Sequence record: PV340550
Reading direction: 5' to 3' (one strand)
DNA: 51,886 nt
Origin: Escherichia phage PhiR12_2
Shown: one piece after another, positions 2 through 1,079 of the stretch
How positions within the stretch are numbered: the stretch's first letter is position 1
Layout of the letters: every line of letters begins with the position of its first letter
Made by a program: the position numbers and the translations under genes
The notes under the pieces: model-generated
Told to the model about the DNA's origin: nothing
What the model saw: only the letters and a program-made list of their open reading frames with translations
Database searches by the model: none

Positions 2-301
2 CGGACTCAACTCGTCAGTTCTTTTGTTGACTCAAACACAGCAAACGAGTTCTTCGTGAGAAGACTGAGTGATCGAGTCTCCCCGGCACGTCAGCTGTTT
101 ATTGTGACATTGAACAATGAGGTTCGTGACGGTGACGTGATCCCGTTTGCTGAGATCGCCATGAACAAAGAAAAATTGCGCTATGTTGTGAAGCCAGCAG
201 ATCAGTATCCTCAGTATGTAAGCAGTAATCTGCTGAAGAAAATTGAAGCGGCAATTGCTCTATACATGCAGAAGAACTACAGGGAAATTAACTACCATTA
301 A
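2..301 (+). CDS. C-terminal part of a hypothetical protein (5' end lies outside the window)
   Basis: Reading frame is open from the first base of the window to TAA at 299-301; the six-frame track shows only the GTG-initiated portion 56-301. No domain recognised. AT-rich. Confidence 0.35.
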   Translation, partial: RTQLVSSFVDSNTANEFFVRRLSDRVSPARQLFIVTLNNEVRDGDVIPFAEIAMNKEKLRYVVKPADQYPQYVSSNLLKKIEAAIALYMQKNYREINYH

Positions 302-312
302 AAGGTTGCTGA

Positions 313-1079
313 ATGGCTCCTGCGTTAATACCTTCATATAACAAGGACTTGAACATCACGCCATTTGGCGAAAAACGTCTTATTGAGTCATTCTATTTTT
401 TCACTGCCGAGGCTGGCTTACTGAGGGCTGATGAGTACATTGTCAGTTCTGGTGAGTTTCAGTACTACTTGGATGTGTATCAACTGGGATGTTCCACCGA
501 CGACTTTTTTTAGACTATGGCAGTGACCTTCTTGATTCGAAGGTTCCAATGCAGGATCTGGTCAATACCCTCTTAGGTCTTGATATGGTAGACGATAACA
601 AAACGATAAGAATAGGTCGTATACAGTTCAACGACTTTAATTTTATCGAAGAGAACGGTCAGATGATGACCGGAAAGCAAGTGAAAAGCGCTGTTATCGC
701 ACAGGATTTCCAATCAGCAGGTTTGGCGCGTGAGATCTATAAAATGCTTGCGCGAAAGCATGAGTTTCTCATCTGCGATAACATTCAAAGTATTGCCGGT
801 GGTGCTCTTTGGGCCAGTAGCATCATTCGAATTGCCGAGGTACGGATCTACAATTCACGCACGAAGAAATTTATGGACATACTTGGTCCAGGTGCGCGTG
901 GTGTTTCAGGTACTTTGCCATGGAGTGCGAATGATCTGTCTGTAGATGAGATTGTTCGCTGGGGTCGTGCGTATGATGATGAAAACTGTTGTCGTCACAT
1001 TGTACATGTTATCTGTAAGGACCGACTCATTGACGAGCAATTTCATGATTATGTTTCGATAGGTGGCGCGACAGAATAA
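313..1079 (+). pseudogene. hypothetical protein split into two overlapping ORFs (313-513 and 489-1079) by a frameshift at a T7 run
   Basis: ORF 313-513 ends at TAG immediately after a run of seven T (507-513); with eight T it would read straight into the 489-1079 frame (..DDFFLDYGSDLL..) giving one protein of about 255 aa. No domain recognised. Confidence 0.35.

Follow-up and report, generated by a model that had tools for sequence, protein, structure and literature searches.

In the GNAT–RHH type II toxin–antitoxin systems (TacAT, AtaRT, ItaRT, KacAT and GmvAT), a small upstream gene and the gene for a GNAT (acyl-CoA N-acyltransferase) enzyme share one operon. Two-domain or heteromeric enzymes of the MshD and FemX type combine a competent GNAT with a GNAT-like unit that has lost the coenzyme A (CoA) loop. 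Phage morons, as known from HK97 and HK022 and from the lambda genes bor and lom, are autonomous promoter–gene(s)–terminator units of deviant base composition, sitting between genes which adjoin each other in related phages, variable in position from phage to phage and dispensable for plaque formation. Homopolymer contingency loci carry an intragenic mononucleotide run with natural length variants and repeated, independent frameshifts. Here we set against these systems the left end of Escherichia phage PhiR12_2 (sequence record PV340550; 51,886 nucleotides (nt), analysed whole and called the window below), where positions 2 to 1,079 hold two genes, ORF1 and ORF2, the second predicted to encode a GNAT and interrupted by a one-base frameshift. 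A cargo cassette carrying a frameshifted GNAT operon is probably the best explanation of the stretch as a whole.

The window is a lambdoid prophage of the PhiR12 type; its identity to Escherichia phage PhiR12_1 is 100% over positions 1–25000 and about 99% in the late region. An earlier annotation made from the letters alone (the sequence-only reading) described three plus-strand open reading frames (ORFs) beyond the integrase gene, the first running off the window. All three frames are present (2–301, 313–513 and 489–1079), but the gene count is two, and both genes belong to one operon:

2–301, plus strand, frame 2: ORF1 in the window, codons 15–113 of a protein of 113 amino acids (aa); runs off the left edge.
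302–312, plus strand: ORF1–ORF2 spacer, 11 nt with an AAGG Shine–Dalgarno-like motif; operon-type spacing.
313–513, plus strand: ORF2 5′ fragment, codons 1–66, then a premature TAG that results from the frameshift.
505–511, plus strand: T7 homopolymer, T8 in intact alleles (TTT TTT TTA, Phe-Phe-Leu); site of the −1 deletion.
510–1079, plus strand: ORF2 remainder, codons 67–255, frame shifted by −1; includes all of the catalytic part of the predicted GNAT fold.

The mechanically called ORF 489–1079 and an annotated 176-aa ORF at 549–1079 are sub-readings of the ORF2 remainder, and no second intact copy of ORF2 exists anywhere in the window. Relatives place the start codon of ORF1 41 nt to the left of the window. 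The ORF1–ORF2 gap measures 10–11 nt in other cassettes too and becomes a 16-nt overlap in distant relatives.

The sequence-only reading had predicted that an eighth T would fuse the two pieces of ORF2 into a protein of about 255 aa. This is exact, as relatives encode that 255-aa fusion in a 768-nt coding sequence. Its position for the run, 507–513, was two bases off: the T's occupy 505–511, and 511–513 is the TAG. The 1.1-kb cassette is present in 10 of 5,426 complete E. coli genomes at 99.2–99.9% identity, and all ten align over 1,121 nt against 1,120 nt in the window. NCTC9112 and M8, the two inspected at base level, have T8 and the annotated 768-nt, 255-aa gene, and across the cassette the sole difference between NCTC9112 and the window is one T. 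Compared across related strains, as the sequence-only reading had suggested, tract length is T8 in ten of ten complete genomes, where the intact 255-aa gene is the normal state, and T7 recurs elsewhere.

T7 is found in all four PhiR12 phage records, identical to the window at this site and with the two fragments annotated in each. At least 24 further contigs, independent of one another and from unrelated projects, carry it in ENA, NCBI, JGI and Logan short-read assemblies (41 index blocks). Its 66-aa product appears on at least 18 contigs in a large protein collection, and these 41 blocks are those that the index of encoding contigs lists for that product. The contexts of these contigs vary on both sides; to the left they show, among others, ypjA, csiD, an EcoRII–Dcm system or a P4-type integrase, and their phage early regions are not alike. 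In an alignment of 14 loci (2.7 kb, from the attachment (att) core to the start of the integrase gene, int), T7 lies on at least four haplotypes of single-nucleotide polymorphisms (SNPs):

Haplotype A: identical to NCTC9112.
Haplotype B: loci L038 and L039.
Haplotype C: M8-like (locus L042).
Haplotype D: locus L044.

Haplotypes A and C occur with T8 as well as with T7. Because SNPs flank the T tract on both sides, independent T8-to-T7 events are more parsimonious than recombination, and the sequences argue for T7 as the product of recurrent slippage. T7 copies carry no further disabling changes, so the slippage events look recent. The frameshift cuts ORF2 after residue 66, ahead of the entire catalytic core, and the re-initiated 176-aa product, as annotated in PhiR12, would be without the N-terminal strands and helix 1. 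A pseudogene or null allele fits the T7 copy best, and the window copy is a recently inactivated allele, at most leaky.

Positions 2–1113 are the right-hand 1.1 kb of a cargo cassette (a moron) of about 1.45 kb, set in a slot that is bounded by the att core on one side and the int 3′ end on the other. The elements that delimit this slot are as follows:

1086–1113, no strand: bidirectional intrinsic terminator AAAAAGACCCGGCA-TTTG-CCGGGTTTTTT, common to the converging ORF2 and int.
1121–2299, minus strand: integrase ORF (int), 392 aa, a tyrosine integrase with an arm-binding domain, of an ssrA-integrating lambdoid prophage.
51841–51867, minus strand: att core, 27 nt, at the opposite junction of the prophage; the sequence is the 3′ end of ssrA, here that of the cut-off gene itself.

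The sequence-only reading had seen no att-like copy of the ssrA 3′ end beyond int. That observation was borne out: the copy at 51841–51867 is the only one in the window, and none lies in 1–1120. Extending leftward in identical relatives, as had been proposed, located both the start of ORF1 and the missing att copy, about 0.4 kb beyond the window. The 27-nt core TGGTGGAGCTGGCGGGAGTTGAACCCG stands at 11590–11616 of the NCTC9112 and M8 loci (L001 and L002), as a direct repeat of window 51841–51867. The PhiR12_1 record starts inside the att core and holds both ORF1 and ORF2. An att core left of ORF1 in relatives, together with the presence of the ORFs in phage records, places the genes inside the phage genome, between att core and int. 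Had the ORFs matched host housekeeping genes, the prophage would have ended at about 1110; they are instead part of the PhiR12 phage genomes, and an att site at about 1110 was rejected because the core lies further left, 385–411 nt beyond window position 1 in the relatives. The prophage boundary is thereby settled.

What fills the att–int gap differs between ssrA-integrating lambdoid phages. Related integrases (80–94% identity) occur in 108 genomes and the cassette in only 10 of the genomes surveyed. In E. coli O26:H11 strain 11368, whose int is 94% identical, the slot is taken up by an oppositely oriented DUF4760 gene (L048 2085–2993). Homology between the O26 and PhiR12-type prophages stops just after the P′ arm (window −292) and restarts 29 nt inside the int 3′ end (about 1149), which leaves the final ~9 codons of int within the variable cargo segment. 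The different gene in O26 marks the gap as a swappable cargo slot. The sequence-only reading had called the integrase-proximal edge a common site for defence or cargo islands; the cargo idea is supported, with the att core to the left, the genes phage-borne and the slot swapped in O26, and for a defence role PADLOC was negative.

As a moron, the cassette is typical in most respects. It lies between elements that adjoin in related phages, at a position that varies between phages, and comprises a putative promoter, genes and a terminator. The hairpin at 1086–1113 is G+C-rich, is flanked by A5 and T6 and folds at −18.6 kcal/mol (z = −6.4), so termination is possible in both directions, which agrees with the bidirectional terminator that the sequence-only reading had placed past the int stop. 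Its label of AT-rich is fair, if mild: G+C content is 43.8% over 1–1079 against 51.0% in the whole window. The PhiR12 records with T7 give E. coli C and MG1655 as hosts; since these phages plaque according to those host fields, an intact ORF2 is dispensable for plaque formation. Unlike the described morons, the cassette has two genes and a terminator-like hairpin between promoter and first gene.

Several further observations concern the att site. The integrase gene (1121–2299) lies at the prophage end distal to intact ssrA, adjoining the displaced 3′ fragment, with the ssrA end itself at 51841–51886. About 60–90 nt from the att core, both arms carry a doubled motif, CACGTGCATTTTACGTGCAT (window 51729–51748; L001 about 11676–11695), and the O26 phage has CAAGTGCATTTTGAGTGCAT at the same position; the doubled CACGTGCATTTTACGTGCAT motifs are candidate arm-type integrase sites, which would fit the Arm-DNA-binding tyrosine integrase annotated in relatives. 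Just past the displaced ssrA fragment, M8 and O26 have a second, P4-type integrase gene or remnant, which suggests tandem occupation of the ssrA site. On the left, the record of PhiR12_5 (PV340554.1, L004) extends about 1.55 kb (1–1553) past the att core, into sequence whose annotation lists IS407-like transposase and integrase fragments. This extra stretch has no match to the flank of NCTC9112 or to that of M8, and it could be host DNA from aberrant excision or reflect a different delimitation of the record.

Structure prediction gives ORF2 the mixed α/β fold of a GNAT. The family alignment shows a CoA pyrophosphate-loop motif, Q134-S-A-G137-L-A139 (family consensus R-G-A-G-L-A), that conforms to the pattern Q/R-x-x-G-x-G/A of the loop between β4 and α3 of GNATs; G137 and L138 are invariant, and A136 and A139 are at least 90% conserved. 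After the loop, DN-x-QS-x-x-GG-x-LWA-x-S stands where GNATs carry motif B. The best structural neighbours are protein N-terminal or lysine acyltransferases. At the sequence level, no curated GNAT model in Pfam or NCBIfam matches ORF2 above threshold, and member by member 1–2 of 29 ORF2 homologues give sub-threshold matches to Acetyltransf_1, _7 or _CG. The family profile reaches bona fide Acetyltransf_1 proteins over the same core (E = 3.5e-5 to 1.6e-4). An exhaustive profile search of 1.84 billion representatives found only 56 relatives, with Pfam Acetyltransf_1 proteins as their distant tail. ORF2 falls in 31 database clusters and in PHROG phrog_3307 (1.4e-59), listed there with function unknown, and is under strong purifying selection (nonsynonymous divergence, dN, 0.06–0.45, with synonymous divergence, dS, saturated). 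C60, C155, C227 and H229 are invariant in 29 homologues (46–100% identity); they could bind a metal or act as a catalytic Cys/His pair.

The partner, ORF1, was modelled from a 99%-identical database protein. It is predicted to be small and β-rich with a long C-terminal helix, and the model looks like a partial, degenerate GNAT without the CoA loop motif. ORF1 is not a duplicated fragment of ORF2, a possibility that we rejected as hhalign found no relationship between the two profiles. Member-wise Pfam scans of both families gave sub-threshold noise with a few weak GNAT matches. A BFVD fold search returned only weak NAT_SF-type matches, and sequence-profile searches of the PDB gave nothing meaningful. 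ORF1 belongs to PHROG phrog_2594 (8.7e-26), likewise of unknown function there, and to 35 database clusters, and it too is under strong purifying selection (dN/dS = 0.08–0.16). The pair thus resembles tandem GNATs of the MshD and FemX type in combining, by prediction, a competent-looking GNAT with a GNAT-like unit that has no CoA loop. It differs from them in that the second unit is a separate 113-aa polypeptide, has only part of the fold and shows no hhalign relationship to the first.

An ORF1 homologue lies directly upstream of an ORF2 homologue in every locus examined. Clusters of the two come from Escherichia, Citrobacter, Salmonella, Enterobacter, Yersinia, Pantoea, Serratia and Mixta, and a genome scan adds Photorhabdus and Xenorhabdus to the hosts. 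Besides the att–int slot, the pair occupies sites between the Q antiterminator and holin genes (antisense to both), between the major tail protein and tape-measure genes of siphoviruses, in myovirus baseplate and tail clusters, and between the lysis genes and parA of SSU5-type phage-plasmids. Linked pairs include those of SSU5 (34% and 33% identity), a P2-like prophage, an SSU5-like contig and Acinetobacter plasmids, and distant relatives of the pair are recovered at an hhalign probability of 97%. Distant homologues occur in 375 plasmid records, mostly of about 105–115 kb. Among the Acinetobacter plasmids, A. wuhouensis pOXA653_010062, an 8.8-kb mobilisable plasmid with an OXA-24-family carbapenemase, carries a pair of 106 and 244 aa (L049 4132–5205), and A. 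baumannii ZW85p2, of the ~110-kb Acinetobacter plasmids, one of 108 and 246 aa (L050 3629–4711). With these, the module reaches beyond Enterobacterales and beyond phages.

The region upstream of ORF1, just outside the window, has a conserved σ70-like putative promoter, TTGAAG-N17-TATCAT. Promoter and leader lie 41–180 nt left of the window (L001 11820–11959) and are identical in PhiR12_1 (L003 220–359). A TTGAnn-N17-TAtaat-like motif precedes ORF1 even where the flanks are otherwise unalignable. The leader folds into three hairpins (−40.6 kcal/mol, z = −3.85). The first, in the E. coli type, is the 6-bp palindrome GATAAC-N4-GTTATC at about +1, directly after the −10 element; other lineages have different palindromes downstream of the conserved −10. 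The second, which has UUUUU after a 15-bp stem and stands about 50 nt upstream of where ORF1 starts, resembles an intrinsic terminator and recurs in most enterobacterial cassettes, not in those of Photorhabdus and Xenorhabdus. The third adjoins the Shine–Dalgarno sequence. A consensus fold of the leaders backs the terminator-type hairpin with little covariation, and an Rfam scan of the ORF1 leader found no family, only sub-threshold terminator look-alikes. The leader could be an attenuator, a small RNA of about 75 nt or an insulator.

What might the pair do? Our tentative reading is a mobile-element module of the addiction or defence type, in which an acyltransferase effector, ORF2, would have ORF1 as its cognate regulator or neutraliser; the T7 allele would be a switched-off copy, at most leaky. 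Four lines of evidence led to this reading: the distribution over mobile elements, with parA adjacency and a small plasmid among the sites; gene order and translational coupling; the palindrome directly after the conserved −10; and the repeated, independent disruption of ORF2 with ORF1 kept. Disrupted ORF2 alleles comprise T7, T6, P0068, P0075, P0076, L034 and a 97-aa truncation in Xenorhabdus indica, and ORF1 is intact in 28 of 28 loci checked. In its fullest form, a possible if doubtful one, ORF1–ORF2 would be an undescribed two-component system in which a GNAT effector is checked or targeted by a "half-GNAT" and serves post-segregational killing or abortive infection, and the E. coli effector has been switched off repeatedly, and possibly back on, through T8. 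Literature searches on PhiR12, GNAT-based prophage defence, toxin–antitoxin systems of small Acinetobacter plasmids and the protein accessions or PHROG id gave no description of the family.

A number of results count against an addiction or defence role. ORF1 has no RHH, helix-turn-helix or DUF1778 signature, and nothing indicates that it binds DNA or neutralises ORF2. It is conserved at least as much as ORF2 at intermediate distances (70% versus 56%, 68% versus 48%), a pattern not usual among antitoxins and one that would suit a subunit with a structural or substrate-binding role. Since ORF2 is the longer of the two genes and includes the T8 hotspot, mutation alone may account for its more frequent disruption. 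No defence model in PADLOC-DB v2.0.0 matches either protein at E ≤ 1, and Pfam and NCBIfam scans of both gave no usable match and no toxin–antitoxin model. The AlphaFold2 (AF2) models are of moderate confidence, with the predicted local distance difference test (pLDDT) score of ORF2 below 50 around residues 159–167, and everything left of window position 1, promoter and leader included, is read from relatives and not from this genome. The likeness to GNAT–RHH systems therefore ends with the operon layout: the partner has a predicted partial GNAT-like fold where an RHH/DUF1778 antitoxin defines those systems, the ORF2-type enzyme has 238–258 aa with an extra N-terminal β region against about 160–180 aa, and ORF2 bears no sequence relationship to their toxin families (no Pfam or NCBIfam match).

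Several of these points agree with a different view, which we consider possible but on the doubtful side, in which the pair is a heteromeric acyltransferase that serves the phage rather than addiction or defence. ORF1 would be a non-catalytic, GNAT-like substrate-recognition subunit, and the target would be a host or phage protein or a small molecule, modified for lysogenic conversion, host takeover or counter-defence. In favour are a GNAT-like ORF1 that is conserved as much as ORF2, and the fact that the structures closest to ORF2 are protein N-terminal or lysine acyltransferases. The cassette of most phages points the same way as their late or tail genes, and in excised PhiR12 it comes to lie downstream of the late operon, across attP. 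The gene is accessory, since T7 PhiR12 phages still plaque on E. coli C and MG1655 by the record host fields. On the other side, the 8.8-kb non-phage plasmid and the parA adjacency fit maintenance or defence better, and recurrent loss of ORF2 with ORF1 kept is not predicted by a heteromer.

The addiction or defence reading, if true, would extend the known acetyltransferase-toxin architectures to a GNAT module with a non-RHH, GNAT-like partner. If the explanation is ordinary, the window copy is a recently inactivated accessory gene. The predicted fold, and with it a testable chemistry, now attaches to a strictly paired family that is "hypothetical" in every resource searched and that reaches hundreds of phage-plasmids and more than 1000 E. 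coli contigs. With the natural T8 and T7 alleles, ON and OFF controls already exist in a phage that can be induced and forms plaques. A slip of one base is an ordinary event; experiments could reasonably be directed at the gene family.

For the T tract itself, an adaptive phase-variation switch, with the GNAT effector ON at T8 and OFF at T7 or T9 at high frequency, appears improbable. T6, T7, T8 and T9 all exist: the recorded T6 product ends in …DDFFRLWQ (70 aa) and the T9 product in …DDFFFRLWQ (71 aa), the latter from one long-read NCTC genome that may be an artefact. A related allele, P0068, is frameshifted at the equivalent Phe-Phe site, and at least four SNP backgrounds carry T7 (two of them have T8 copies too), with no build-up of secondary inactivating mutations. 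In its intragenic run, its T6–T9 length variants and its repeated independent frameshifts, the locus resembles a homopolymer contingency locus, and a frame-shifting length polymorphism among isolates is indeed present. The tract is not kept in orthologues, however. The 90%-identical Atlantibacter orthologue encodes DDFFLD as GAT GAT TTC TTT CTA, an Enterobacter allele has T6 at the tract site, and the remaining orthologues have no run there, so we see no sign of selection maintaining it. The exact ORF1 sequence lies on at least 1000 contigs against 18–41 with T7, which makes the OFF state only a few per cent of cassettes, and eight T's are short for high-rate switching in mismatch-repair-proficient E. 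coli. Contingency loci differ on each of these counts. By the codon comparison, the T8 run is an accident of codon choice in one lineage, the E. coli allele, and a slippage hotspot rather than a conserved switch. The slipped homopolymer of the sequence-only reading therefore stands; of the options it listed, the pseudogene fits best, and a phase-variable switch survives only as a recurrent, formally reversible hotspot.

Recoding could make T7 a low-expression allele rather than a null one, if ribosomes slipped by −1 on UUU UUU UAG or RNA polymerase added a U on the T7 run; we regard this as quite improbable. A −1 slip in the P site would regenerate the exact wild-type protein: tRNA-Phe would re-pair perfectly in the −1 frame, the next codon would be UUA (Leu), restoring DDFFLD, and the zero-frame stop in the A site would favour slippage. 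Against this, no stimulatory structure was identified, and a run of seven T's usually gives slippage of the order of a per cent or less. In orthologues and most alleles the gene is a plain in-frame ORF, and a conserved programmed frameshift was rejected since homologues are single uninterrupted ORFs of 238–258 aa. The last option of the sequence-only reading, a sequencing or assembly error at the homopolymer with the gene intact in the real genome, is very improbable and for practical purposes excluded: homopolymer indels are common in long-read assemblies and the lone T9 allele may be one, but four PhiR12 phage genomes, each deposited separately, have the identical T7, and so have at least 24 contigs of short-read assemblies in varied chromosomal contexts.

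Elsewhere in the window, the early and regulatory part of the prophage has three RNA matches at the Rfam gathering score:

15077–15154: isrK Hfq-binding RNA.
15180–15264: C4 antisense RNA.
18328–18533: STnc100.

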